Shown here: positions 2,027-13,911 of the stretch, one piece after another
Position numbering within the stretch: position 1 is the stretch's first letter
How the letters are laid out: each line of letters opens with the position of its first letter
Source: a virus
Lineage: Duplodnaviria > Heunggongvirae > Uroviricota > Caudoviricetes
IMG/VR virus record: IMGVR_UViG_3300020714_000006
Strand: one strand, 5' to 3'
DNA: 64,000 nt
The notes under the pieces: generated by a model
Told to the model about the DNA's origin: nothing
Seen by the model: the letters and a program-made list of their open reading frames with translations, nothing else
Database searches by the model: none
Made by a program: the position numbers and the translations under genes

Positions 2027-2055
2027 TTGACACAAAGTATAAATAAGAGTATAAT
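2027..2055 (+). promoter_or_regulatory. sigma70 promoter of the tRNA-array leader
   Basis: TTGACA(2027-2032)-17 nt-TATAAT(2050-2055); TATAAATA late-type motif embedded in the spacer. Confidence 0.8.
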
Positions 2056-2103
2056 ACATATCAACAGTTGGGGTCAACTGTTTATAAAAGGAATTTTGAT
2101 ACA

Positions 2104-2232
2104 ATGAAAACACAATTACATCAACAGCTAAAACCTTATACAACTATGGGCATTTGTTCGCCTGTATGGTTTGGTTTATCTATTGATCTTAATAGTGCAC
2201 CGGAGTATCGTAAGGGTTCTTTGAAGACATAA
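2104..2232 (+). CDS. putative leader peptide, 42 aa, contains all 20 amino acids
   Basis: AAGGA upstream; MKTQLHQQLKPYTTMGICSPVWFGLSIDLNSAPEYRKGSLKT*; last codons overlap the antiterminator strand. Confidence 0.65.
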   Translation: MKTQLHQQLKPYTTMGICSPVWFGLSIDLNSAPEYRKGSLKT

Positions 2233-2300
2233 TTTATAAAGTTTAAGTTAGTTGTTCAAAGAACCCTGAAAGTGAAAACTCTCAGGGTTTTCTGGTTTTT
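2213..2300 (+). terminator. mutually exclusive antiterminator/terminator (attenuator)
   Basis: AGGGTTCTTTGAA(2213-2225) pairs perfectly with TTCAAAGAACCCT(2255-2267); alternatively GAACCCTGA-a-AGT-GAAA-ACT-c-TCAGGGTTT hairpin followed by a T-rich run. Confidence 0.7.
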
Positions 2301-2449
2301 AGACTCCTTAAAAAAGTAGTTGACAAACACACAAACAGTGATATAAAATGGTACACCTGATGAACCCAAAACACACTATAAACGTTTAAAAAACAGGGGG
2401 TTCTGGAGATAATATCAATAGACATACTATCGATGGGATAGTAATATTA

Positions 2450-2540
2450 AACCATATATTATGAAAGGATGAATTAACATCCCCTGTTATTGTAGTCGAG
2501 ATATGCAATAATGTGGCTAGTGTCATAGTAATGTGTGGTT
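2450..2540 (+). ncRNA. structured spacer RNA with long terminal stem
   Basis: AACCATATATT/AATGTGTGGTT closing stem with internal hairpins GGATG/CATCC and TTATTGTA/TGCAATAA. Confidence 0.4.
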
Positions 2541-2543
2541 CAA

Positions 2544-2646
2544 TATTAAAACATACTTAAGGCTAATAATATGCCTTGTTGGGAGAACAGCTCAATGCAT
2601 AGCACTCTGAGTGGACGGTTCAAGTCCGTTATAGTATGTTTTAATA
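2544..2646 (+). ncRNA. long-stem RNA containing a tRNA-like T-arm
   Basis: 14-bp TATTAAAACATACT/AGTATGTTTTAATA stem; internal GACGG-TTCAAGT-CCGTT T-arm mimic. Confidence 0.5.
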
Positions 2647-2647
2647 T

Positions 2648-2696
2648 ACATTCTTCACTGACTACGAATCAGTTAAAATGCATAGCAGGAGAGTGT
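2648..2696 (+). ncRNA. small RNA displaying an Arg(ACG) anticodon stem-loop
   Basis: ACATTCTTC/GGAGAGTGT closing stem; ACTGA-CTACGAA-TCAGT 5-bp stem with 7-nt loop. Confidence 0.5.
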
Positions 2697-2706
2697 TATA
2701 AAAATT

Positions 2707-2800
2707 GGGTTCCTTTCCCGCCAGATGACTGTAAATCATCCGTCTAAAAAACGGTGGGGTAGTATTAGGACAGGGTGTGCAAGTCGCCAGGAACCCACCA
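2707..2800 (+). tRNA. atypical tRNA-Tyr(GTA)-like RNA lacking a canonical D-arm
   Basis: GGGTTCC/GGAACCC acceptor + ACCA; GATGA-CTGTAAA-TCATC anticodon arm; deviant T-arm. Confidence 0.6.
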
Positions 2801-2805
2801 AATTT

Positions 2806-2858
2806 TAGGATGCCTACAGCAATCACTTTCTTCTCATAAAAGGCAAAAGTGCATCCTG
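2806..2858 (+). ncRNA. CAGCAA-stem small RNA copy 1 (Met CAT anticodon-loop cargo)
   Basis: TAGGATGC-cta-CAGCAA...GCATCCTG; TCTT-CTCATAA-AAGG inside. Confidence 0.7.
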
Positions 2859-2867
2859 TAAATTATT

Positions 2868-2942
2868 GCTTCGTTCAGATATTGGTTATTCTGCTCGGCT
2901 GTCTACTGAGATAAAGGGGTTCGATTCCCCTACGAGGCGCCA
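2868..2942 (+). tRNA. tRNA-Asp(GTC)
   Basis: cloverleaf, CTCGG-CTGTCTA-CTGAG, GGTTCGATTCC, CCA. Confidence 0.85.
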
Positions 2943-3011
2943 AATTAATACTTGACAATAATTTTATTGTAAGTATAATAGAACTTGAACTTAATAGTTC
3001 AATACGGCAAA

Positions 3012-3205
3012 GTAAAGTGTCGTGGGATGGTAAAAGCTGGATACATGTCTATGACTGTAAGTCAATTATGTACAATTAATGCCCAATAAAATATCAGGTA
3101 CACCTGAGGCGGTGATTGTAATAAGATTGACGAAGGTAAGCTTACATACTGGAATTGATCACCAGGAACGTTTGCAATAGAATGTTGGAACGCCAGCAAC
3201 TTTAC
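3012..3205 (+). ncRNA. unidentified ~195-nt structured RNA
   Basis: upstream TTGACA/TATAAT promoter (2952-2979); GTAAAGT/ACTTTAC closing stem; several internal stems; no ORF in the track. Confidence 0.45.
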
Positions 3206-3280
3206 ACAATTTTTTAAATTATGAAGTAATTTGTTGATACCTAAGCGGCGTGAATGCGAATTACTTCATTCTTAAGTTTT

Positions 3281-3355
3281 GTCCCTATCGTCTAGCGGTT
3301 AGGATATTGGATTTTCACTCCAATAACACGGGTTCAAATCCCGTTAGGGACTCCA
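3281..3355 (+). tRNA. tRNA-Glu(TTC)
   Basis: GTCCCTA/TAGGGAC acceptor, TTGGA-TTTTCAC-TCCAA, GGTTCAAATCC, CCA. Confidence 0.9.
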
Positions 3356-3371
3356 ATTTAATGCCTATTTT

Positions 3372-3445
3372 CGGGAATTAACTCAGTCTGATAGAGTGCA
3401 CCGTTTGGGGCGGTGAAGCCACTGGTTTGAATCCAGTATTCCCGA
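3372..3445 (+). tRNA. tRNA-Pro(TGG)-like, no CCA, embedded in an extended stem
   Basis: CACCG-TTTGGGG-CGGTG; D-loop lacks GG, T-loop TTTGAAT; flanks 3360-3371 and 3445-3456 are complementary. Confidence 0.65.
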
Positions 3446-3538
3446 AAATAGGCATTATGATAGCATAATAGTAGCACCAATTTTAATTTAGGAAACAATT
3501 ATGAAACGAAAACAAAATAAAGAAACTGACAAACTATT

Positions 3539-3615
3539 GGAACCGTAGCTCAATTGGATAGAGCAATCGCCTTTTAAGCGATAGGTTATGGGATCATGCC
3601 CCATCGGTTCCACCA
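3539..3615 (+). tRNA. tRNA-Lys(TTT)
   Basis: GGAACCG/CGGTTCC, ATCGC-CTTTTAA-GCGAT, atypical T-loop ATCATGC, CCA. Confidence 0.85.
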
Positions 3616-3682
3616 TATATTAAAACACATTGAAAATATAACATGATTTGCTGAAATTCCAAGCCAGTGTGTTTTAATATAT

Positions 3683-4449
3683 GGTAATATAGCATAATGG
3701 TAGTGCTTTTTTCAAAAAAACATAAATACTAGAAGGAGATGCACTACCAAATGTTAATATGTAAATTTTGTAATAAAGAATGTAAGAACAATAATTCATT
3801 GATTAACCATGAAAGATTGTGTAAGAAAAACCCTGACAGACAAAAAAGTCCGTTTGAGAGTAAAGAGTTTCAAAGTAAAAGAAAAAAATCAAATCAGTAT
3901 ATCAAAGGTACAGCCCAACCTCGTAGCAAAGAATCTTTAACTAAACAAAAAGTTAAATCAGATTTATATTGGACTGCTGAAAAACGAGCAGAGTGGTCTT
4001 TGCATATGAAGATTCAAGCACAGAAGAATATAGAAAATCATCCTGAATCTTATTCATATAAGAATTTTTGCGGTAGAGCTAAAAAATCTCTATACAAAGA
4101 CGAGTGGATGCATAGTAGTTGGGAACTCATCGTTGCGATATGGTTAGATAAACAACATATCAAGTGGACAAAACGGGTAAGATATTTTGATTATGAATGG
4201 AACGGAGGAGTACACAAGTATTTCCCGGACTTTTACTTAGAAGAGTTAGATATTTATATTGAGGTCAAAGGATATGAAACTGAAAGAGATACGCAAAAAT
4301 GGAAAAGTGTTGATAACTTAATTATTTTAAAAGATAAAGAAATTAAAGCAATAAAAGAAGATAGATTTACATTTAGTCAGATACTTTAAGAGTAAGAGGA
4401 ATCTTTCATACGGCGTAAAGTGAAAGTTCAACTCTTTCTATTACCTCCA
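3683..4449 (+). pseudogene. tRNA(CAT) gene interrupted by an endonuclease ORF (5' part 3683-3706, 3' part 4405-4449)
   Basis: GGTAATA + D-arm before the ORF; TTCATAC loop, GAAAG-TTCAACT-CTTTC T-arm and TATTACC-T-CCA after it; acceptor strands are complementary. Confidence 0.7.
3739..4389 (+). CDS. free-standing PD-(D/E)XK (TnsA-like) putative homing endonuclease with N-terminal Zn finger
   Basis: CKFC...HERLC; SSWE...YFPDFY...YIEVKG. Confidence 0.75.
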   Translation: MHYQMLICKFCNKECKNNNSLINHERLCKKNPDRQKSPFESKEFQSKRKKSNQYIKGTAQPRSKESLTKQKVKSDLYWTAEKRAEWSLHMKIQAQKNIENHPESYSYKNFCGRAKKSLYKDEWMHSSWELIVAIWLDKQHIKWTKRVRYFDYEWNGGVHKYFPDFYLEELDIYIEVKGYETERDTQKWKSVDNLIILKDKEIKAIKEDRFTFSQIL

Positions 4450-4456
4450 AACTTAC

Positions 4457-4530
4457 ACCCGATTAGTTCAAAGGTAGAACATAGTCCTGATAAGACTAAA
4501 ACGGTGGATCGATACCACCATCGGGTACCA
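4457..4530 (+). tRNA. tRNA-Ile(GAT)
   Basis: ACCCGAT/ATCGGGT, TAGTC-CTGATAA-GACTA, CCA. Confidence 0.85.
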
Positions 4531-4538
4531 ATTTTAAT

Positions 4539-4616
4539 GCCTCCTTATCCCAACTTGGTAGAGGAAGTGGACTTAGAATCCGTTTAGTCTCAGTTCGAAT
4601 CTGAGAGGAGGTACCA
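4539..4616 (+). tRNA. tRNA-Leu(TAG), short variable loop
   Basis: GCCTCCT/AGGAGGT, GTGGA-CTTAGAA-TCCGT, TTCGAAT, CCA. Confidence 0.85.
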
Positions 4617-4634
4617 ATTTATAGGAGAATTATA

Positions 4635-4820
4635 ATGAAAGATAAATTAACGGATTTAGAACCCATCGAATTTTGGATGGAAAAATATAATAAATTACTT
4701 GCTCCTGCAAGAATGAATAAAGTCAGATTAGACTTTAATGAAACAAAAAAAACGTTGGCAAAGCTATCATCAGCTATTGACAACTATTTACGATTTGATA
4801 ATTTGGAAAAAATGAAATGA
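4635..4820 (+). CDS. hypothetical protein
   Basis: ORF with AGGAG RBS, coupled to next gene. Confidence 0.55.
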   Translation: MKDKLTDLEPIEFWMEKYNKLLAPARMNKVRLDFNETKKTLAKLSSAIDNYLRFDNLEKMK

Positions 4821-5188
4821 GGGCATACTTTTTAACGAATATGTACTTGAGTTCAATACAAAATGGTATACAAGCATTACATTGTTTACAAGAAATAAAC
4901 AATAATTACACTAATAACCATATGCTTCACGATTGGGCAGTAAACCATAAAACTACATTTGTTTTGAACGGTGGTACTAGTCAACAAATGACTAATATAC
5001 TAAAATTGTTTGATCATGGCAGTAATCCATATCCTTGGTCGTATTTTAGAGAGGAATCATTAGAAGATACACTAACATGTGTTGGTATAATTGTTCCAGT
5101 ATCTATATATGGAACTAGAAGAAGCGATTATGGTAGTTTTGACCATGAATTGTCTGAATTATTGACTTCAAAAAGATTTGCAAAGTGA
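4817..5188 (+). CDS. peptidyl-tRNA hydrolase 2-like phage protein
   Basis: GIQALH...W...KTTFVLNGG...FREESL..TLTCVGI pattern recalls the PTH2 fold. Confidence 0.5.
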   Translation: MRAYFLTNMYLSSIQNGIQALHCLQEINNNYTNNHMLHDWAVNHKTTFVLNGGTSQQMTNILKLFDHGSNPYPWSYFREESLEDTLTCVGIIVPVSIYGTRRSDYGSFDHELSELLTSKRFAK

Positions 5189-5224
5189 TTTGACATATAG
5201 TAAAAAATACTATATAATACTGAT

Positions 5225-5935
5225 ATGAAATTTAAAGTAATCAATTTATTAAGAACACCTGAACGACTGACATTGTTTAAAAAGAATAATCCATCGTTTA
5301 AATTTGAAAGATTTAATGCAATAGATGGTCAACAAGTATCTCGTGATGTATTAGTGCAAAATACTTTGGCTACACTGCCAGTATCAGAAAGATATACAGA
5401 TGGTGCAGTTGGTGTTGCACTTTCACATCTAGAATTATGGAAAGACTGTGTTAAATTAAACATTCCAATGACAATTTTGGAAGATGATGCTTATCTAGTA
5501 CCAAATTTCAATGAATTAGTGGTAGAATACAGTAATAAACTTGAAAATTGGGATTTTATATTCTGGGGAATGAATTTAGATCAAAAAATTATACTAGAAT
5601 TAAGTCCTGGTATAGCGTTAGCTGAAATAAATTATCAACATGAATATGTATTGCATAATATAGAAAACATTACTAAACAAACTGATATTATACCGCAATT
5701 CTTTAGATGTTATTGGGGAGTTGGGTTAGTTTGTTATAGTATTACACCTAGAATAGCAAAGTATTTAATAGAAAATATTTTTCCATTACATGACTACGAT
5801 ACCAATCGTGGACCAAATGGTGGTATTGATAATTCTATTATTGAAGAATTACCAAATATGATTGCATATGCTTGTATGCCACCTATAGCGCTAACAAAAA
5901 ATGATAGATATAATTCAACAGTTCAAGAAAACTAG
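5225..5935 (+). CDS. glycosyltransferase family 25
   Basis: VINL.R..ER, F.AIDG, SHLELW, ILEDD motifs. Confidence 0.85.
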   Translation: MKFKVINLLRTPERLTLFKKNNPSFKFERFNAIDGQQVSRDVLVQNTLATLPVSERYTDGAVGVALSHLELWKDCVKLNIPMTILEDDAYLVPNFNELVVEYSNKLENWDFIFWGMNLDQKIILELSPGIALAEINYQHEYVLHNIENITKQTDIIPQFFRCYWGVGLVCYSITPRIAKYLIENIFPLHDYDTNRGPNGGIDNSIIEELPNMIAYACMPPIALTKNDRYNSTVQEN

Positions 5936-5975
5936 TTGACAAAAGCAGTAAACATTGATATAATATAACAACAAT

Positions 5976-6050
5976 TGGGGTATGGTGTAATGAATAGCAC
6001 AACAGATTTTGATTCTGTCGGTCTAAGTTTGATTCTTAGTACCCCTACCA
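5976..6050 (+). tRNA. tRNA-Gln(TTG)
   Basis: TGGGGTA start, ACAGA-TTTTGAT-TCTGT, CCA; upstream sigma70 promoter. Confidence 0.8.
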
Positions 6051-6070
6051 ATTCTATAATAGAGATAAAA

Positions 6071-6409
6071 ATGACAGATATATTAACTACAGTAGTAAAT
6101 TCAGTTGGAAACTATCGTAATCATAAAACTGAAACATTAAAAGATACACCAGTATATTTAAAATCATATGTTGAACAATATTTTGAAAAAGCTGATAAAC
6201 ACTTTGAGAGATTAATGGATATATGTATTAATGTACCAGAATGTTTTACTATTGCAAGTATTGATATAACTAATGTGGTATTAAAAAATAATGAAGTTAG
6301 CTACTCATTACAATTAACACCAGAACTAACTGATATACAAATTTCAGAATCTGAATTTGTTATTCAATTATTCAAACGCATTCGTTTAGCTAAAACTAAA
6401 CAAATATAA
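6071..6409 (+). CDS. hypothetical protein (start corrected past tRNA-Gln)
   Basis: in-frame ATG at 6071 after GAGA. Confidence 0.55.
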   Translation: MTDILTTVVNSVGNYRNHKTETLKDTPVYLKSYVEQYFEKADKHFERLMDICINVPECFTIASIDITNVVLKNNEVSYSLQLTPELTDIQISESEFVIQLFKRIRLAKTKQI

Positions 6410-6432
6410 AAATTAACTTAAGGAAATAATAA

Positions 6433-6702
6433 ATGAAATTAACAGGTATTTTATTAGTAGCATTAGTTGCTATTACAGGATGTGCAACTAACTCTGATAT
6501 AACTAAATTACAAAGTCAGATTGATACAATTAAATCAGATGCTGCAACAGTTTCTGCTGATGCAAGTGCCGCTAAAGTATCAGCTGATAAAGCTTTTACG
6601 TCTGCTAGTAATGCATTAGCAGCTGCACAAAAAGCTGAAGCTGCAATTACTATTACTGGTAATAAACTAGACAGATTGTTTACACAATTACAGTATAAAT
6701 AA
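6433..6702 (+). CDS. Lpp/OprI-family alanine-zipper outer-membrane lipoprotein
   Basis: lipobox ITGC, Ala-rich coiled coil, C-terminal YK. Confidence 0.75.
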   Translation: MKLTGILLVALVAITGCATNSDITKLQSQIDTIKSDAATVSADASAAKVSADKAFTSASNALAAAQKAEAAITITGNKLDRLFTQLQYK

Positions 6703-6820
6703 ACAAATTTGTTCCTTTGGTATACTAGGGAATACAATTATTGTATTCCCAGCCTTATAGAGATACCTTAACAATAGATTACATAGTAATACATATACTA
6801 TTGAGGAACAAAATAATTAT

Positions 6821-6908
6821 GGAAGTGTAGTCAAGTGGTTTACGACAACTGATTTGAAATCAGTCGATCCGAGAGGGTCCGTGGGTTCGAATCCTACCAC
6901 TTCCGCCA
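6821..6908 (+). tRNA. tRNA-Ser(TGA)
   Basis: GGAAGTG/CACTTCC, ACTGA-TTTGAAA-TCAGT, long variable arm, GCCA. Confidence 0.9.
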
Positions 6909-7093
6909 ATATTAAAGACTAAATAATAATATACACATCATTTAAGGGGTATATTATGAAAGAACTTGGCTTAATAATATTAGCAATATTAGTTTTTATG
7001 TACGTGAACATGGAGATTTCATCAATGAATCCGTGTTCTAATTTTTCTCACAATCCTAGTGAATGTAATTCTGATAGGATGTGAACAATTTAA

Positions 7094-7167
7094 AGCCAGG
7101 TGATGAAATGGTATCATGACGTGCTCCAAACGCGTTTTTGGGGGTTCAAATCCCTCCCTCGCTGCCA
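7094..7167 (+). tRNA. tRNA-Trp(CCA)
   Basis: ACGTG-CTCCAAA-CGCGT, GGTTCAAATCC, GCCA; one acceptor mismatch. Confidence 0.8.
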
Positions 7168-7186
7168 AATTTTGATAAGTAATAGT

Positions 7187-7636
7187 ATGCTTAGAATATA
7201 CAATGATTCAACAGATACAACAGTTTCAGATTTTAAAGACATAACTTGTAAATTAGACGAAATTGGAGTTTTATATAAAAATACCTTTTCAACTTCAACA
7301 ACATTGGATACAATTGATTATATAAAATATGAATATTCTGTCCCATACTATGATGTAGTATTTTTAAATAATAAAACTATAAATTATAACAAAATTAGAA
7401 AAGAATTTATTCGAGAACATACTCATACTGATTTTGAAATGAGATTTATAACTCATGGTACTGCTACATTTTATATTAAAGATAGCAGTACCATTTATGA
7501 AATAACTGTAAACACTGGTGATCTAATAAGTATACCAGCTAATATGAAACATTGGTTTGATGCTGGTGAAACTCCAGATCTTTCAGCAATACGGTTTTTT
7601 ACAGATACAAATGGTTGGATTGCAAATTATACTTGA
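7187..7636 (+). CDS. mtnD: acireductone dioxygenase (cupin)
   Basis: EHTHTDFEMRF, GDLISIPANMKHWFD, AIRFF....GW; start corrected past tRNA-Trp. Confidence 0.8.
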   Translation: MLRIYNDSTDTTVSDFKDITCKLDEIGVLYKNTFSTSTTLDTIDYIKYEYSVPYYDVVFLNNKTINYNKIRKEFIREHTHTDFEMRFITHGTATFYIKDSSTIYEITVNTGDLISIPANMKHWFDAGETPDLSAIRFFTDTNGWIANYT

Positions 7637-7835
7637 CAGCCATTGAAAAACGATATATAATATACACTTACTCACAACTTATCTAGGATACAAAATGAAA
7701 AAAAGTTTTACTTATAACGGCATTATTTGCTTCTAATGTTCATGCTTCTGAGTTAGAATCTAAAATAAGGGTGATTGACCAATTTGTAAAAAAATTCAAT
7801 TACGCAGTTGAAACTAAAGACTATGCTGATGCATG

Positions 7836-8135
7836 TCAATTTTCACGAATACTTGAACGTGATTTTAAAGATTTTGCTACTTTTTCTTTTTGAATATCTG
7901 ATACTATACGTTTTTTATTATTATGTGAAGCAGCACAAGAATGATTACAAAATTTAGGTTGTTTACCTAATAATTCTTTATTACAATGTAAACAATATTT
8001 TATATTTTTTGGTTTTAATCTTCGATTGATGAATGTTAAGCACCCATTAGATGGACCATGCATTCTTTTATGACCAGATAATGATTGTATAGATGGAAAA
8101 GTCTTGTGACACATGTCACAAGTATAAATATTCAT
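7836..8135 (-). CDS. C2H2 zinc-finger protein, probably a truncated homing endonuclease
   Basis: CDMC...HKRMH, CLHC...KFCNHSC; preceded by the shared endonuclease leader; no nuclease domain. Confidence 0.55.
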   Translation of the reverse strand: MNIYTCDMCHKTFPSIQSLSGHKRMHGPSNGCLTFINRRLKPKNIKYCLHCNKELLGKQPKFCNHSCAASHNNKKRIVSDIQKEKVAKSLKSRSSIREN

Positions 8136-8265
8136 GTTGATACTCCTTGATAGTATTAAAGTAGTTGGGAACTCCAATTCCGCGAACTACCCCTTTATTT
8201 ATCAAAAAATAAATATTGACAAAACATTTTAATATGTTATAATATACAAAAATAAGAGGAAAAAC

Positions 8266-8445
8266 ATGGCTGGTAAAGGCAGTAGACAAAGACCTACAGA
8301 TATGAAAAAATATGCTGATAATTGGGATGCAATCTTTGGTAAAAAAGAAAAGGTTGACACAGAAGTATTAGATGTGTATAATGAAGAAAGATTAGTTTCT
8401 AAATTTGATAAAGAAAGTAATAAACCACTTGACAACAACAACTAA
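8266..8445 (+). CDS. small phage protein (MAGKGSRQRP...WDAIF)
   Basis: GAGGA RBS and sigma70 promoter; 59 aa, below the ORF-track cutoff. Confidence 0.55.
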   Translation: MAGKGSRQRPTDMKKYADNWDAIFGKKEKVDTEVLDVYNEERLVSKFDKESNKPLDNNN

Positions 8446-8457
8446 ATAGGATATAAT

Positions 8458-8640
8458 ATGTCTATACAAAGTAAATCTAGTAGACCTAGAAAAGCACCTA
8501 ATTTAACTCGTAATGGTAAAATTAGATTTCTTGGATTTTCATTAGCTAAATTACAAGAATTGGTTGAAAAATCAAGTAGACCTAAAGATAAAAGTAAATA
8601 TAACAATCGTATTAAAATTTTAACTAAAAGAGGCTTATAA
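8458..8640 (+). CDS. small basic hypothetical protein
   Basis: ORF track; coupled to next ORF. Confidence 0.5.
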   Translation: MSIQSKSSRPRKAPNLTRNGKIRFLGFSLAKLQELVEKSSRPKDKSKYNNRIKILTKRGL

Positions 8641-8792
8641 TGGCAACAACAGCAGAAGTTAAACGATGTGGATGTACTGGTACACCGGCAGCTAAGTTTC
8701 AAGATGAAACATATGGTAAAGGTATGCGAGTATGTAATGAAGATCAGAAAAAAGGTTATACCTGCACTGTTTGTGGTGCAAAAGTAAAGTAA
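8640..8792 (+). CDS. small Cys-rich (Zn-ribbon-like) protein
   Basis: MATTAEVKRCGC...FQDETYGKGMRVCN...CTVCG; GAGG RBS. Confidence 0.55.
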   Translation: MATTAEVKRCGCTGTPAAKFQDETYGKGMRVCNEDQKKGYTCTVCGAKVK

Positions 8793-8799
8793 GAATAAT

Positions 8800-8879
8800 G
8801 CTAGGTTCGCATAGTGGCAATTGCAACGGTTTTGTAAGCCGTCGGGAAACCTACATCGGTTCGAGTCCGATACCTAGCT
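8800..8879 (+). tRNA. tRNA-Thr(TGT) with long variable arm
   Basis: GCTAGGT/ACCTAGC, ACGGT-TTTGTAA-GCCGT, GGTTCGAGTCC; CCA not directly encoded. Confidence 0.8.
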
Positions 8880-8986
8880 AACCATCTCTAGTATAAATAT
8901 GTATTATGGGACAGCCTAGATCCTCTAGAACTGGGTTTTGAATTATTCGAAGTAATTCAATTACCATAATTATTTATCAAAAACAC

Positions 8987-9015
8987 TTGACAAATAAATA
9001 AAAATACTGTATAAT
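8987..9015 (+). promoter_or_regulatory. sigma70 promoter upstream of CAGCAA RNA copy 2
   Basis: TTGACA-17 nt-TATAAT. Confidence 0.75.
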
Positions 9016-9033
9016 ACACAGAATAAATAATTT

Positions 9034-9087
9034 TAGGATGTTTTCAGCAATTAAAACAATTTCATTGGCGAAAATAAACACATCCTG
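9034..9087 (+). ncRNA. CAGCAA-stem small RNA copy 2
   Basis: TAGGATGT-ttt-CAGCAA...ACATCCTG; inner TTTC-ATTGGC-GAAA hairpin. Confidence 0.7.
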
Positions 9088-9110
9088 TTATAAACAACAA
9101 TGAGAACCAC

Positions 9111-9296
9111 ATGCAAATTTATATTCCAAAAGACAAACAAAAACTTACATTTATGGGTGAACTAATTGACAGGTATAGTAATTTACATAAACAGTATAAA
9201 ATAGAACAAAATGAAGTTACCAGAACGATAATATCAGCCGAAATTATACACATTTCCAATCAAATTGCATCTGGTATGTATGATGAAACAGAATAG
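9111..9296 (+). CDS. hypothetical protein between two identical RNA repeats
   Basis: ORF track. Confidence 0.45.
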   Translation: MQIYIPKDKQKLTFMGELIDRYSNLHKQYKIEQNEVTRTIISAEIIHISNQIASGMYDETE

Positions 9297-9321
9297 ATAA
9301 TATATCTGGTATAATTAGTTT

Positions 9322-9375
9322 TAGGATGTTTTCAGCAATTAAAACAATTTCATTGGCGAAAATAAACACATCCTG
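9322..9375 (+). ncRNA. CAGCAA-stem small RNA copy 3 (identical to copy 2)
   Basis: exact direct repeat of 9034-9087. Confidence 0.7.
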
Positions 9376-9384
9376 TTAAATATT

Positions 9385-9458
9385 GCGGTCTTGGTATATT
9401 GCTCGTGCCATGCCTTTCCACGGCATAGAAAGGGGTTGGATTCCCCTAGACCGCTCCA
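9385..9458 (+). tRNA. tRNA-Gly(TCC)
   Basis: GCGGTCT/AGACCGC, ATGCC-TTTCCAC-GGCAT, TCCA; deviant D and T loops. Confidence 0.8.
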
Positions 9459-9473
9459 ATTTATAAAGGCTAT

Positions 9474-10040
9474 ATGACATTACAAGAAATGTTAAACAAA
9501 ACTTATGTACGTCAGCGATCATTTGAAATAATGATTGAACACTTGGATACAATTAACAATCCATTAATTGTTGAAACTGGATGTGCTAGACAAGAAGATA
9601 ACTTTGCTGGTGATGGAATGAGTACCTTGATATTTGATAGATATATTAACGATAAAGGTGGAGAATTCCATTCAGTTGATATAAATCCTTCTAATATCAA
9701 ATTTGCTAAAAGCAAAGTTAGTAATAAAAGCAATTTACATGTAAGTGATAGTGTATCTTGGTTATGGGAATTTAACAAAACTGGTAAACAAATAGATCTA
9801 TTATATTTAGACAGTTTTGATTTTGATAGAAATAACCCTTATCCAAGTTGTATACACCATTTAAAAGAATTAACTGCTATTATAGGTAGTTTAGGTGAAA
9901 CCACAGTAATTGCGGTAGATGATAACTTTGGGCAAGGTGCTTCTCGCATTGGTAAAGGCCAATTAGTTGAAGAATTTATGAAATCAACAGGTAGAAATCT
10001 TCTTTTATATGAAGGATACCAATTACTGTGGAAATGGTAA
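9474..10040 (+). CDS. class I SAM-dependent methyltransferase-like protein
   Basis: IVETG, SVDIN, IDLLYLDS, IAVDD motifs. Confidence 0.65.
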   Translation: MTLQEMLNKTYVRQRSFEIMIEHLDTINNPLIVETGCARQEDNFAGDGMSTLIFDRYINDKGGEFHSVDINPSNIKFAKSKVSNKSNLHVSDSVSWLWEFNKTGKQIDLLYLDSFDFDRNNPYPSCIHHLKELTAIIGSLGETTVIAVDDNFGQGASRIGKGQLVEEFMKSTGRNLLLYEGYQLLWKW

Positions 10041-10050
10041 TATAAACAAT

Positions 10051-10124
10051 CGCAGGTTATTTTAATGGTAGAATTCTGGGCTCATAACCCAGAGATGATA
10101 GTTCGACTCTATCACCTGCTTCCA
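10051..10124 (+). tRNA. initiator tRNA-fMet(CAT)
   Basis: C1 unpaired, three G-C pairs in CTGGG-CTCATAA-CCCAG, CCA. Confidence 0.85.
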
Positions 10125-10128
10125 ATTT

Positions 10129-10244
10129 TAGGATACATTCAGCAATACAACTTTGACAAGCAGATGGTCATTGGTTCAAATCCAATATGTTAGTAATAAC
10201 ATTAGCTCAGCTGGTAGAGCATCCGCCATAAAAAACGTATCCTG
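10129..10244 (+). ncRNA. CAGCAA-stem small RNA copy 4 with a circularly permuted tRNA-like domain (YrlA/Y RNA-like)
   Basis: TAGGATAC..CAGCAA...GTATCCTG enclosing T-arm, loop-closed acceptor stem, then D-arm. Confidence 0.75.
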
Positions 10245-10265
10245 TTAAAATTAAAAGAGGTAATA

Positions 10266-10538
10266 ATGACACAAGTAACAGCAAGACATATTTTAGTTCA
10301 ATCTCTTTCAGAAGCAGAAATCTTACATAAACAACTTATTGAAGGTTCAGATTTTGGAATGTTGGCTAGAACACATAGTAAATGTCCAAGTGGACAAAAT
10401 GGTGGTAATTTAGGTACATTTGGTCGTGGTCAAATGGTACCACCATTTGAAAATGCAACATTTGATTTAGATGTTGGCGGGTTAAGTGAACCAGTCCAAA
10501 CATCATTTGGATATCACATTATCAATAGAACAGCATAG
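10266..10538 (+). CDS. ppiC: parvulin-type peptidyl-prolyl isomerase
   Basis: ARHILV, SKCPSG..GG.LG.F..GQMVPPFE, FGYHII. Confidence 0.92.
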   Translation: MTQVTARHILVQSLSEAEILHKQLIEGSDFGMLARTHSKCPSGQNGGNLGTFGRGQMVPPFENATFDLDVGGLSEPVQTSFGYHIINRTA

Positions 10539-10546
10539 GAATAATA

Positions 10547-10834
10547 ATGAATTTTCAAGTATTATATGATCGTGTAGTAGTAAAGAAAACAGTAGATACT
10601 AAAGTTAGTGCATCTGGAATTATTATTGCTGCTGATTCAAAAGAAAGAACAATTACTAGCGAAGTTGTTGCAGTTGGTGATGGAAAACAGTATGAAAATG
10701 GTAATGTTATACCAACTACTGTTAAAGTAGGTGAACGAGTAATGTATTTAAAAGATACTGGCATTGATATTAAAATTGATGGCGTTGACTATCTTATATT
10801 GCATGAAAGTGAAATTCTTGGTATCATAGAATAA
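10547..10834 (+). CDS. groES: co-chaperonin GroES
   Basis: LYDRVVV, SGIII, VVAVGDG, ESEILGI. Confidence 0.9.
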   Translation: MNFQVLYDRVVVKKTVDTKVSASGIIIAADSKERTITSEVVAVGDGKQYENGNVIPTTVKVGERVMYLKDTGIDIKIDGVDYLILHESEILGIIE

Positions 10835-10841
10835 ATTATAC

Positions 10842-10916
10842 GCTGAAGTGACAGAACGGCTATGTAGCGGTCCGCAAAACCGTTTAATGTGGGTTCGAAT
10901 CCCATCTTTAGCTCCA
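10842..10916 (+). tRNA. tRNA-Cys(GCA)
   Basis: GCTGAAG/CTTTAGC, GCGGT-CCGCAAA-ACCGT (C33), TCCA. Confidence 0.85.
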
Positions 10917-10937
10917 TTTTTAATAGTTAAATTTAAA

Positions 10938-11028
10938 TGAATAGTTTCAGCAAACAATATTGCGACTAATAATCGCTCCAGAGATACTTCATTGCTGTTA
11001 GAAGTAAAATGACGGCAACAGCTATTCA
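10938..11028 (+). ncRNA. CAGCAA-stem small RNA copy 5
   Basis: TGAATAG-ttt-CAGCAA...CTATTCA; GCGA-CTAATAA-TCGC hairpin; potential pseudoknot. Confidence 0.65.
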
Positions 11029-11033
11029 GTTTT

Positions 11034-11082
11034 TAGGTTCCATTCAGCATATACTTTCACTGCAAATGAAAAACGGAACCTG
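11034..11082 (+). ncRNA. CAGCA-stem small RNA copy 6 (Cys GCA anticodon-loop cargo)
   Basis: TAGGTTCC-att-CAGCAT...GGAACCTG; TTTCA-CTGCAAA-TGAAA. Confidence 0.7.
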
Positions 11083-11092
11083 TTATTACATT

Positions 11093-11194
11093 TAGGCTAG
11101 ATACAGCAACCCATACAACTTATAATGTTAGACTGGTATATCCGGTCACACTGGAAGGAAGAACCAGTATAAAAACTCAACAAACACTAGCCTG
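11093..11194 (+). ncRNA. CAGCAA-stem small RNA copy 7
   Basis: TAGGCTAG-ata-CAGCAA...CTAGCCTG; inner hairpins GACTGG/CCGGTC and ACTGG/CCAGT. Confidence 0.7.
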
Positions 11195-11216
11195 TTTCCC
11201 CATCCACCTTACATTA

Positions 11217-11441
11217 ATGGACCTTATAATGTCTTTAGAATTGATTGACCAACTTGTAAAAGAAACTGTTGACGTCGCAAATTATCTAGATTACGCAGTT
11301 GATATCGATGAAGAACTGATGTTACTTGCAATTAAGAATAATCAAGAACTTATCGATGAATTAAATAACCTACCACATCGTGAATATAAAGAAATTGTTG
11401 AAATTGTTTTAGATAAAGCATATGACAATTTTTATGCATAA
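11217..11441 (+). CDS. acidic hypothetical protein
   Basis: ORF track. Confidence 0.45.
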   Translation: MDLIMSLELIDQLVKETVDVANYLDYAVDIDEELMLLAIKNNQELIDELNNLPHREYKEIVEIVLDKAYDNFYA

Positions 11442-11482
11442 TATAAGTTGACAAAAAAATTAAATCTGTTATAATACATCTA

Positions 11483-11530: not shown

Positions 11531-11998
11531 ATGACTACAAAATTAAATACAAACAAAACAGTCACTAGTAATGGCATGAAATGTAATAATGATACAGGTG
11601 ATGCAGTTGTTTCATTATTCTTTAAAATAGGTGCAAGTCGTGGTAAAGATATAATTCCAGCATTTACTGATGCATATTACCAAAATAAAGAACTAGCGTT
11701 ACGAGTTGCATTATGGTCACGTGATGTGCGTGGTGGTTCTGGCGAACGAAAATTGTTCAGAGATATTCTAACACATTTAGAAACTATTGATATTGATGCT
11801 GCTAAAGCTTTAATTGATAAAACAGTTGAGATAGGAAGATGGGATGACCTATTGGTGTTCAAAAAACCAGAACTACAACAAGTGGCTTTCTCTAAAATAA
11901 AAAGCACACTTGAGGCAGGATTGAACGCTAAAAGTTTATTAAAAAAAATCGATTCTCTTACGGAAGAAGAATGTCAAAAAATCATTGACAAGTTTTAA
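11531..11998 (+). CDS. TROVE/DUF2828 (Ro60-related) protein, N-terminal fragment
   Basis: T.NG, LFFKIGASRG, RDVRGGSGER, GRWDDLL motifs. Confidence 0.8.
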   Translation: MTTKLNTNKTVTSNGMKCNNDTGDAVVSLFFKIGASRGKDIIPAFTDAYYQNKELALRVALWSRDVRGGSGERKLFRDILTHLETIDIDAAKALIDKTVEIGRWDDLLVFKKPELQQVAFSKIKSTLEAGLNAKSLLKKIDSLTEEECQKIIDKF

Positions 11999-12695
11999 TA
12001 TGTTTAGAAAAATTCCCAGGATCAAATTGGCGTTTGCAATATATACAACACCTATATGATATATCTACGGGAATTTTTCTCTTTTTACCTAGTAATTTGT
12101 TTTTTTCTCTAGTAATACGTCGTTTTTCCTCTATTATTTGGTTTTCAATATCAGATCTATTTTTTGCAATATTACGAACTGAATTAGATATTTTTTGTAT
12201 AATTTCTTTAGAACGATTTTTATTTGCATCTGAAATTTTTTTAGATCTTATTTTTTTAGTTTCTTCGGTCATATTTGCATGACCACATTTAGCACCAATT
12301 GAAATGTTTAATATAACCTGTTGATGCTCAATCAATGACCGATTGTTTTTTCTATCTATACATTTTTGGATAGATTCTTTAGTTGGGATAAATTTGGTAG
12401 CAGAGAATCTTTTATTTAACCAAAAATCTCTGAACTTCCATAATCTAGAAAGTATTTTACCTTCCCAGATAATTGCATCTTGTTTAGATTTAAACGTTTT
12501 TCTAATCAATATTATATCTGGTTCTCCATGATTTTTTCTAAAATCTTTCACTATTGTTGAACTTGTAAAATAAGAATTCCACAAGTCTGCTGGTTGACAA
12601 TTATTTGCATATCGAACACCATAATACCATTTATTATGGGTAGTCCAACCAATTAAATAAGTAAACGGGATTGTTTTTGATTGATAAATAGACAT
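11982..12695 (-). CDS. putative homing endonuclease (GIY-YIG-related, YYGVR type)
   Basis: PFTYLIGW...WYYGVRYA...YFTSS; basic repeats; C-terminal CxxC. Confidence 0.7.
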   Translation of the reverse strand: MSIYQSKTIPFTYLIGWTTHNKWYYGVRYANNCQPADLWNSYFTSSTIVKDFRKNHGEPDIILIRKTFKSKQDAIIWEGKILSRLWKFRDFWLNKRFSATKFIPTKESIQKCIDRKNNRSLIEHQQVILNISIGAKCGHANMTEETKKIRSKKISDANKNRSKEIIQKISNSVRNIAKNRSDIENQIIEEKRRITREKNKLLGKKRKIPVDISYRCCIYCKRQFDPGNFSKHIKTCQ

Positions 12696-12837
12696 GTTGA
12701 TACTCCTTCATAGTATTAAAGTAGATGGGAACGGCTAATTCCGCGATCTACACTTATTTATCTTTTTTGCTTGACATTTCTTCTCACCTATTGTATAATA
12801 CAATTTTATATTAACAAATAACCTGACAGGTACAATC

Positions 12838-13911
12838 ATGACAGCAAAAGAAGAATTAAAACAAAAATTACAATCACAGCTATTTGATGCAAACACAGCT
12901 GCAAAATGGATGCCTAGAGAAAAATCATCGAAGCGAAATATCGCCAGAGACTTAATTAAATTCTTTGGATGGTCTCCAAAATTTTATCGTAAAACTTTAG
13001 TTTCATTAACTTCAGTCGTTGAAACACAAATGTGTGCAAATGATTGGGATAATATTAACTTTAGTCATGTACCATCATTGGCTAGTTCACGATACAAAAA
13101 AGCATTTAATAGACATACTACTAAATTTGCTGACTATGTTGAATCTTTAATTAAAGGTGATACATCAGTTAAGGTAAATGCCGGTGCAGTATTTCCATAT
13201 GATGTTTTAAAAGGTATCGGTGGATACGGATTTAAAGCAGAAACGGACCATATCATTGCACAATGGAATGCATTACCAAATTTTGTCGGCGATGCTAATA
13301 TTTTACCATTAGTTGATGTTAGCGGATCTATGAGTTGCCCAGCAGGTGGATATAACTCTAAAAGTTCAGTTACTTGTATGGACGTTGCGGTATCATTGGG
13401 ATTATACTTAGCAGACAAAAATGCTGGTAAATTTAAAGATACATTTATCACATTTAGTGAAAAACCAGAGTTATTAACACTTCAAGGCAATATTGTTAAT
13501 AAAGCTTCACAAATGATAGGATCACACTGGGGTATGAGCACTGATTTACATGCTGCATTTGATTTAATATTGAAAATGGCAGTTAAATTAAATATACCAC
13601 AAGCAGAAATGCCAGAAATGTTATTGATAATGTCAGACATGCAATTTAACTGTTGCAGAAACTATGATGATAGTGCAATTCAAATGATAGAACGAAAATA
13701 TTCTACTGCTGGATATGTTGTACCAAAGGTTGTATTTTGGAATATCAATGCATCAGATAATGTTCCAGTAACTGCTGATAAATCAGGTGCTGCATTGGTA
13801 TCTGGATTTAGTCCAGCTATTGTAAAAGCATTATTAGCTGCTGATATGAGTGATTTCACACCATATGGCATTATGATGTCAACGATAACTAACCCAAGAT
13901 ATGACGTATGA
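12838..13911 (+). CDS. TROVE/DUF2828 protein, C-terminal fragment with vWA domain
   Basis: AAKWMPRE, VVETQMC, DVSGSM MIDAS, SDMQF, VFWN, VSGFS; own promoter at 12771-12800. Confidence 0.85.
   Translation: MTAKEELKQKLQSQLFDANTAAKWMPREKSSKRNIARDLIKFFGWSPKFYRKTLVSLTSVVETQMCANDWDNINFSHVPSLASSRYKKAFNRHTTKFADYVESLIKGDTSVKVNAGAVFPYDVLKGIGGYGFKAETDHIIAQWNALPNFVGDANILPLVDVSGSMSCPAGGYNSKSSVTCMDVAVSLGLYLADKNAGKFKDTFITFSEKPELLTLQGNIVNKASQMIGSHWGMSTDLHAAFDLILKMAVKLNIPQAEMPEMLLIMSDMQFNCCRNYDDSAIQMIERKYSTAGYVVPKVVFWNINASDNVPVTADKSGAALVSGFSPAIVKALLAADMSDFTPYGIMMSTITNPRYDV

Follow-up and report, generated by a model that had tools for sequence, protein, structure and literature searches.

Leader-peptide transcription attenuators include trpL, hisL, pheL, leuL and the multivalent thrL and ilvGMEDA leaders. 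In these leaders, codons for one to three amino acids stand in runs, and the output consists of biosynthetic enzymes. The E. coli pheM/pheST attenuator senses one charged tRNA and controls a synthetase. A separate, old question is whether phages carry tRNA genes for reasons of codon bias or to replace tRNAs that the host has destroyed. The phage locus described here shares with the trp, his and ilv leaders a promoter, a short ORF running over an antiterminator arm, a strand common to two helices and a terminator hairpin (here with an interrupted U-tract), and the position of the ribosome is again predicted to pick the helix. In contrast to those leaders, it contains all 20 amino acids, often once each, its output is tRNA genes, and clustered control codons were not found. 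The likeness to pheM/pheST is that attenuation would sense charged tRNA and control a part of the translation machinery, whereas the phage switch concerns the whole tRNA set rather than one amino acid and a synthetase. Our search, largely confined to the open literature, yielded no paper on a leader-peptide attenuator preceding phage tRNA genes.

The window, i.e., the whole stretch of 64,000 nucleotides that was analysed, is part of a large AT-rich phage (31% GC); the longest contig with the leader peptide measures 292,584 bases. The DNA polymerase of this phage shares 51% identity with its counterpart in Sinorhizobium phage Phosso, 47% with that of Agrobacterium phage Atu_ph07 and 46% with those of several Escherichia jumbo phages. 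The leader-switch element lies between a Dam methylase gene and an array of tRNAs, small genes and structured RNAs on the plus strand (2706..10916), composed of a Tyr-like non-canonical tRNA and 13 tRNAs called by ARAGORN. The latter extend from 2868 to 10916 on the plus strand and comprise Asp, Glu, Pro, Lys, Ile, Leu, Gln, Ser, Trp, Thr, Gly, Met and Cys types; no Ala, Arg, Asn, His, Phe, Val or canonical Tyr tRNA was called in this window. The Tyr(GTA)-like tRNA, at about 2706-2797, was missed by ARAGORN, and the arrays of relatives start with a called tRNA-Tyr. Nine more perfect promoters belong to the array region, between 2952 and 11448.

The predicted switch lies at 2027..2300, with all of its features on the plus strand. 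The perfect sigma70 promoter of the original prediction is indeed present: P1 (TTGACA-17-TATAAT, 2027..2055) matches the consensus at 12/12 positions and is retained in near relatives. At the predicted transcript start stands a 5' hairpin with an 8-bp stem (2063..2082); in one relative, L033, a compensatory exchange has turned an A-U pair of this hairpin into U-A. The proposed ribosome-binding site, AAGGA at 2088..2092, is plausible and is retained in L033, L096, L116 and L124, but at 11 nt before the ATG it is rather far from the start codon. The leader ORF (2104..2232) has 42 codons and encodes MKTQLHQQLKPYTTMGICSPVWFGLSIDLNSAPEYRKGSLKT. It contains all 20 amino acids by codon 36, as had been claimed, with 19 of the 20 present by E34 and the last new one being R36. 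Inside the ORF, directly before the Trp codon, lies a hairpin (2145..2166) that is a candidate RNA-polymerase pause hairpin.

Codons 37-41 form the 5' arm of the antiterminator (2213..2225), placing it inside the 3' end of the ORF. This arm is the exact reverse complement of 2255-2267, giving the 13-bp duplex that had been described, with a predicted energy of -18.5 kcal/mol. A perfect inverted repeat of at least 13 bp occurred in only 3 of 2000 shuffles of 2062-2300, and the antiterminator fold has a z-score of -7.2. The 3' arm belongs to a strand (2255..2269) that also provides the 5' arm of an intrinsic terminator-like hairpin (2260..2300, with its interrupted U-tract), so the antiterminator and terminator helices are mutually exclusive. 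The terminator stem pairs 2260-2269 with 2282-2291 around an inner GAAA loop (-16.7 kcal/mol, z -3.3), which confirms the GAAA-capped hairpin of the original description. Past the last G-C pair the tail reads TTTTCTGG, with 5 T of 8, which bears out the earlier caveat that the U-tract is interrupted; this tail would not pass the filter of at least 6 T of 8 used for the family scans. Five IMG/VR relatives have an identical hairpin followed by TTTTTTAG. Also as cautioned, a second promoter, P2 (TTGACA-18-TAAAAT, 2320..2349, 11/12), follows directly after the terminator. It is found at +29 to +32 in 5/5 near relatives, and in the wider family only 6 of 46 representatives have a promoter within 200 nt of the terminator, against a background of 19 in 310 bins.

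The all-20 property of this single copy is only suggestive. With the amino-acid usage of the window, the chance of all 20 amino acids is 0.010 for 42 codons and 0.002 for 36, and among the short ATG ORFs of the window (25-60 aa) 4 of 218 contain the complete set. The varied synonymous codons and the G/C-ending ones listed in the original prediction are present, but their variety does not exceed chance: the leader uses 30 distinct codons where 28.1 are expected (P 0.22) and 8 G/C-ending codons where 5.6 are expected (P 0.19).

Searches by similarity stayed close to this copy. Protein searches with the leader peptide reached only the near clade (the peptide itself, P0002 and P0003-P0006), the peptide matched no Pfam family, and the leader RNA had no match among Rfam families, T-box and other cis-regulators included, at the gathering threshold or at E values up to 1. 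A locus search with a two-peptide alignment gave 37 pattern matches, none of which was confirmed. GenBank phage searches gave chance-level matches or none, and a match in phage 121Q was rejected as chance-like. The pattern was absent from three cultured phages (121Q, Atu_ph07, Phosso) and from five others (DLP6, BUCT-ZZ01, S13, BF, nt-1), within the reach of exact patterns, which miss other variants. A metagenome scan returned four loci, three of them unrelated repeats and the fourth a near relative (L124).

We scanned viral contigs twice with patterns describing the three RNA arms only, without any ORF or amino-acid criterion; the first pattern yielded 101 loci and the second, which fixed part of the T run, 98. 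A match was called U-tailed if T filled six or more of the 8 bases past the stem, and a leader was counted if an ORF of 15-80 aa ended within 40 nt of the antiterminator start. Leader ORFs accompanied 155 of 157 U-tailed viral matches (57/59 and 98/98 in the two scans). Among loci with at least 1 kb of downstream sequence, 105 of 106 had tRNAs there (34/35 and 71/71); just 80 loci per scan had 3-kb flanks. Viral matches that lacked the U-tail served as a control and had a leader in 1 of 42 cases and tRNAs in 2 of 34. To scan bacterial and archaeal genomes we lengthened the first pattern by two terminal T; of the 103 loci obtained 102 were parsed, and the U-tailed matches had a leader in 5 of 53 cases and tRNAs in 0 of 35. 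Family members are related, so these counts do not represent independent events. As judged from these sequence comparisons, the pan-amino-acid leader design is a feature of phage tRNA arrays, as far as the scan patterns reach, and dozens of other phage lineages show the same predicted design.

Leaders of related phages, in which the original prediction proposed to look for continued 20-amino-acid coverage, largely show it. In an alignment of this copy with 47 representatives of 40-58 aa, 34 of the 48 leaders are complete, whereas permuting residues within columns gave a mean of 5.6 and a maximum of 13 in 2000 permutations. The excess persists after clustering, for which leaders under 36 aa were left out. 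At 60% identity, 38 of 61 clusters have all 20 amino acids, against 2.0 expected from phage usage, 3.1 from pooled leader usage and 8.5 from uniform usage; at 40% identity the figure is 16 of 36, against 1.1-4.9. For unique leaders of at least 40 aa it is 74 of 106. Cysteine illustrates how the set is kept: aligned leaders contain on average 0.98 Cys per peptide, spread over 24 columns, and it is absent from 3 leaders where 18 would be expected to lack it. Compared within each amino acid, residues present as a single copy change less readily than those with several copies (stratified odds ratio 0.36; the 35 disjoint pairs were counted both ways, so the chi-square of 17.5 is inflated), and 29 of the 39 single-copy residues that did change occur elsewhere in the partner leader.

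Indirect signs of possible translation come from these protected single residues and from the leader ORF as a whole, which has a pN/pS of 0.53 over 40 non-independent pairs and in which 15 of 26 indels are multiples of three, compared with 4 of 38 in the spacer. Not all of the nearest peptides are complete, P0002 having 19 amino acids (without F) and P0006 having 17 (without A, D and W). In this copy Cys precedes Trp by four codons and Phe comes after Trp, and most near relatives have Trp-Cys. Taken together, the comparison speaks for selection on completeness and strongly supports the core of the original prediction, a proposed attenuator of phage tRNA genes with a leader selected to carry every amino acid.

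The complete set is also tied to the position of the switch. Among complete leaders, 31 of 33 finish the set before the antiterminator codon, compared with 10.6 expected on shuffling, and 23 finish it 2-3 codons before the antiterminator, in part because of a conserved DR..PE motif at that place. The frame in which the antiterminator arm is read varies (26, 17 and 4 of 47 representatives for the three frames), which indicates that the RNA overlap is what is conserved. The search patterns imposed a 7-bp switch core. Past this core and a 2-base internal loop, only position 3 is clearly above shuffles, being paired in 27 of 47 representatives (shuffle mean 16, maximum 25); positions 5 and 6 are not. 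A promoter lies within 200 nt upstream of the leader in 40 of the 43 representatives with enough upstream DNA, and a strict Shine-Dalgarno motif was found in only 13 of 47.

To relate ribosome position to RNA structure, an equilibrium folding model was used. With a ribosome at the stop codon all 47 representatives terminate, and with a ribosome at codon 10, 33-34 of them antiterminate while 13-14 do not favour the antiterminator. For a stall at the last new residue, antitermination was obtained for 26, 11 and 5 of 47 at footprint offsets of +9, +12 and +15, respectively. In this copy, with the offset set to +9, the probability of the terminator was at most 0.03 for all tested ribosome positions between codons 10 and 34, 0.73 at codon 35 and 1.0 from codon 36. 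In naked RNA the antiterminator reached 0.975 in this copy and was favoured in 35 of 47 representatives. Here the phage design departs from the trp, his and ilv leaders, since without translation its antiterminator arm is left uncovered by any helix, and the hairpin before the Trp codon lies outside that arm. Across the family this hairpin has a mean z-score of -1.14 (below -1 in 24 of 46), compared with +0.45 for a control at codons 2-13, and may be a pause site; in this copy its z-score is only -0.3.

What the leaders cover can be read from those with few amino acids. We collected 15 loci (6 clusters) that use no more than 15 amino acids ahead of the switch and have three or more non-Met tRNA types within 3 kb. 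In this set, 46 of 48 downstream tRNA types have their amino acid in their own leader, the best result among 720 pairings (mean 32.3), which ties leader content to tRNA content. Exact cognate codons of the downstream tRNAs show no such excess, occurring in 62 of 123 cases where 64.8 are expected, and so it is amino acids rather than anticodons that are covered. We rejected anticodon coverage on this count and on the chance-level codon variety of this copy. Family leaders do contain about 1.2 extra distinct codons each (1429 versus 1371 expected, sd 12), an excess that the pre-Trp hairpin may explain.

The original prediction held that a lack of any tRNA would be sensed. Coverage at the level of amino acids is borne out as a selected property, but perhaps not every residue is placed to act: in the model, a ribosome at R36, the first Arg, already gives termination of 0.73-1.0 at all four offsets. 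Arginine is therefore probably not sensed in this copy, its codon coming too late. As to the signal, we infer that tRNA cleavage or decay fits better than amino-acid starvation, for the sole reason that added tRNA would remedy the former.

In the proposed mechanism, host RNA polymerase would start at P1 and a ribosome would follow, perhaps coupled to it through polymerase pausing at the pre-Trp hairpin. When charged tRNAs are plentiful, the ribosome would pass codons 34-35 and cover 2213-2225, allowing the terminator to form and transcription to halt near 2295. A ribosome stalled at codons 2-34, or one that never loaded, would leave the arm free for the 13-bp antiterminator, and transcription would read through into the array. 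P2 and the internal promoters would meanwhile provide basal expression, so that the switch would add tRNA rather than turn it on from zero. Translation of the leader peptide, termination and read-through are predicted for this copy. The earlier proposal of ribosome-mediated attenuation of the phage tRNA array gains support from the family comparison, with the conserved P2 and the nine array promoters suggesting a booster rather than a gate here. Overall, this copy probably functions as a pan-amino-acid attenuator that responds to slow decoding and boosts tRNA output, its likely purpose being to refill a tRNA pool depleted by infection or by host defence.

Four other explanations deserve consideration. 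The family might be a real attenuator of which this copy is a leaky or bypassed member, with P2 and the internal promoters driving the array and a weakened terminator regulating little. The TTTTCTGG tail, set against TTTTTTAG in relatives, would fit this, as would the conservation of P2, the ten other strong promoters in 2320-11475, the loss here of the upstream Arg of the family DR motif and the lack of the element in one syntenic relative. However, P1, the Shine-Dalgarno motif, the frame, all 20 amino acids and the 13-bp duplex are intact, and the displacement of Cys and Phe relative to the nearest peptides looks like compensation. The hairpin, at -16.7 kcal/mol, is moreover as stable as the stronger ones of the family (-11.6 to -21.6, computed on a shorter segment), and we consider a leaky copy unlikely. 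Still less probable is pure luck, i.e., a short ORF that happens to overlap a terminator and to contain all 20 amino acids; a probability of about 0.01 per 42-codon ORF and the complete set in 4 of 218 short ORFs of the window leave room for it in one genome, but the family statistics and both negative controls make it scarcely credible.

The switch could also read only whether translation is running and coupled, responding to ribosome damage, antibiotics, host shut-off or infection timing, with tRNA or amino-acid supply not being the selected signal. Because the antiterminator arm is unmasked, absence of translation alone would give read-through, and impaired translation is what induces the trn array of Anabaena, according to the part of that report considered here (PMC8421152). 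General stalling, however, requires no complete amino-acid set, and this explanation accounts neither for the excess of 34 complete leaders over 5.6, nor for the protected single residues, nor for the match between subset leaders and their tRNAs. We hold it to be quite improbable as the selected function, and a response to translation status may be a true side property. TnaC and ErmCL are arrest peptides, and in a leader of that kind the conserved W and DR..PE residues would act with a small molecule to stall the ribosome. The Trp does occupy one alignment column in 46 of 48 leaders, and DR is found in about 35-37 of 48. Yet the residues have no fixed spacing (6 to 18 codons from W to DR, 11 to 27 from W to the antiterminator), this copy lacks DR, and the motif is missing from short family members. 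Since UGG often closes the RNA hairpin, the fixed place of the Trp can be explained otherwise, and arrest appears very improbable. An attenuator that senses nearly all amino acids and boosts tRNA output remains our preferred explanation.

The relative without the element is L008, which is syntenic with the window (Dam 74% identical) and retains the gene order. No promoter-leader-terminator arrangement was found after its dam gene or elsewhere in its 56-kb contig, which is 15% complete. In the place of the leader, at about 5914-6111, it has a 65-codon ORF with seemingly all 20 amino acids and neither promoter nor terminator, possibly a decayed or replaced leader. A tRNA with a CTA anticodon, resembling an amber suppressor, is present in L008 at 3441-3517 and in L329-L333, at 3.0-5.0 kb upstream of the terminator.

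Several other elements were observed in and around the array. A tRNA-like fold on a 15-bp stem lies at 2543-2650. A structured RNA of 230 nt (2985-3215, -61.7 kcal/mol) lies behind a separate perfect promoter at 2952; an Rfam search with this RNA gave no match, and its 3' part can be recognised in L008. A small-RNA scaffold with the closing stem TAGG...CAGCA...CCTG is repeated with varying inserts at 2808-2858, 9036-9087, 9324-9375, 10131-10244, 11036-11082 and 11095-11194. The copies at 9036 and 9324 are identical, and the one at 10131 seemingly has tRNA-like arms in permuted order and matched YrlA below threshold (33.4 bits, E 3e-4). Elements resembling the scaffold are visible in L008 and L033. 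Beyond the array, a DUF2828/DUF7788 gene (11531-13911), annotated in several phages as 'RNA-binding protein', is broken into two ORFs, between which lies an antisense ORF of 237 aa that seems to encode a homing endonuclease. The gene has a separate perfect promoter at 11448, and its product may be a partner of the scaffold small RNAs. Host-like genes also stand amid the array (6433-6702, 7187-7636 and 10266-10834), assigned as alanine-zipper lipoprotein, acireductone dioxygenase, parvulin PPIase and GroES.

A sensor that links tRNA transcription to how every amino acid is decoded speaks for supply on demand in the old debate over phage tRNA genes, which becomes testable with a 300-base reporter, the subset leaders acting as built-in specificity controls. 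Published work suggests why such a supply would be useful: the tRNA-Lys of phage T5 counters PARIS (PMC11464382), and phage tRNAs counter tRNA-cleaving defence (PMC10264068), which together give a likely reason for tRNA supply on demand, as far as the portions of these papers considered here go. The abstract and opening of the former describe no sensor, and the portion of the latter that was covered contains neither 'attenuat' nor 'leader'. A functional parallel is the trn operon of Anabaena PCC 7120, a supernumerary tRNA L-array that, in the part of the report considered, is co-regulated with rtcB RNA repair; its induction is under promoter control (PMC8421152). Direct repeats spanning the -10 box of the promoter are characteristic of this type of array.

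Where classical leaders respond to one to three amino acids, the proposed design covers the whole code, which makes it a compact and general sensor of the health of translation. More tentatively, and at somewhat less than even chance in our estimate, many large phages may carry a tRNA-pool surveillance switch of this phage-specific attenuator class, which would detect the destruction of tRNAs by host defence and answer it with replacement tRNAs and RNA-repair partners, the content of the leader evolving to match each tRNA block. If this reading were true, phage tRNAs would be an inducible counter-defence and not a supplement for codon bias.
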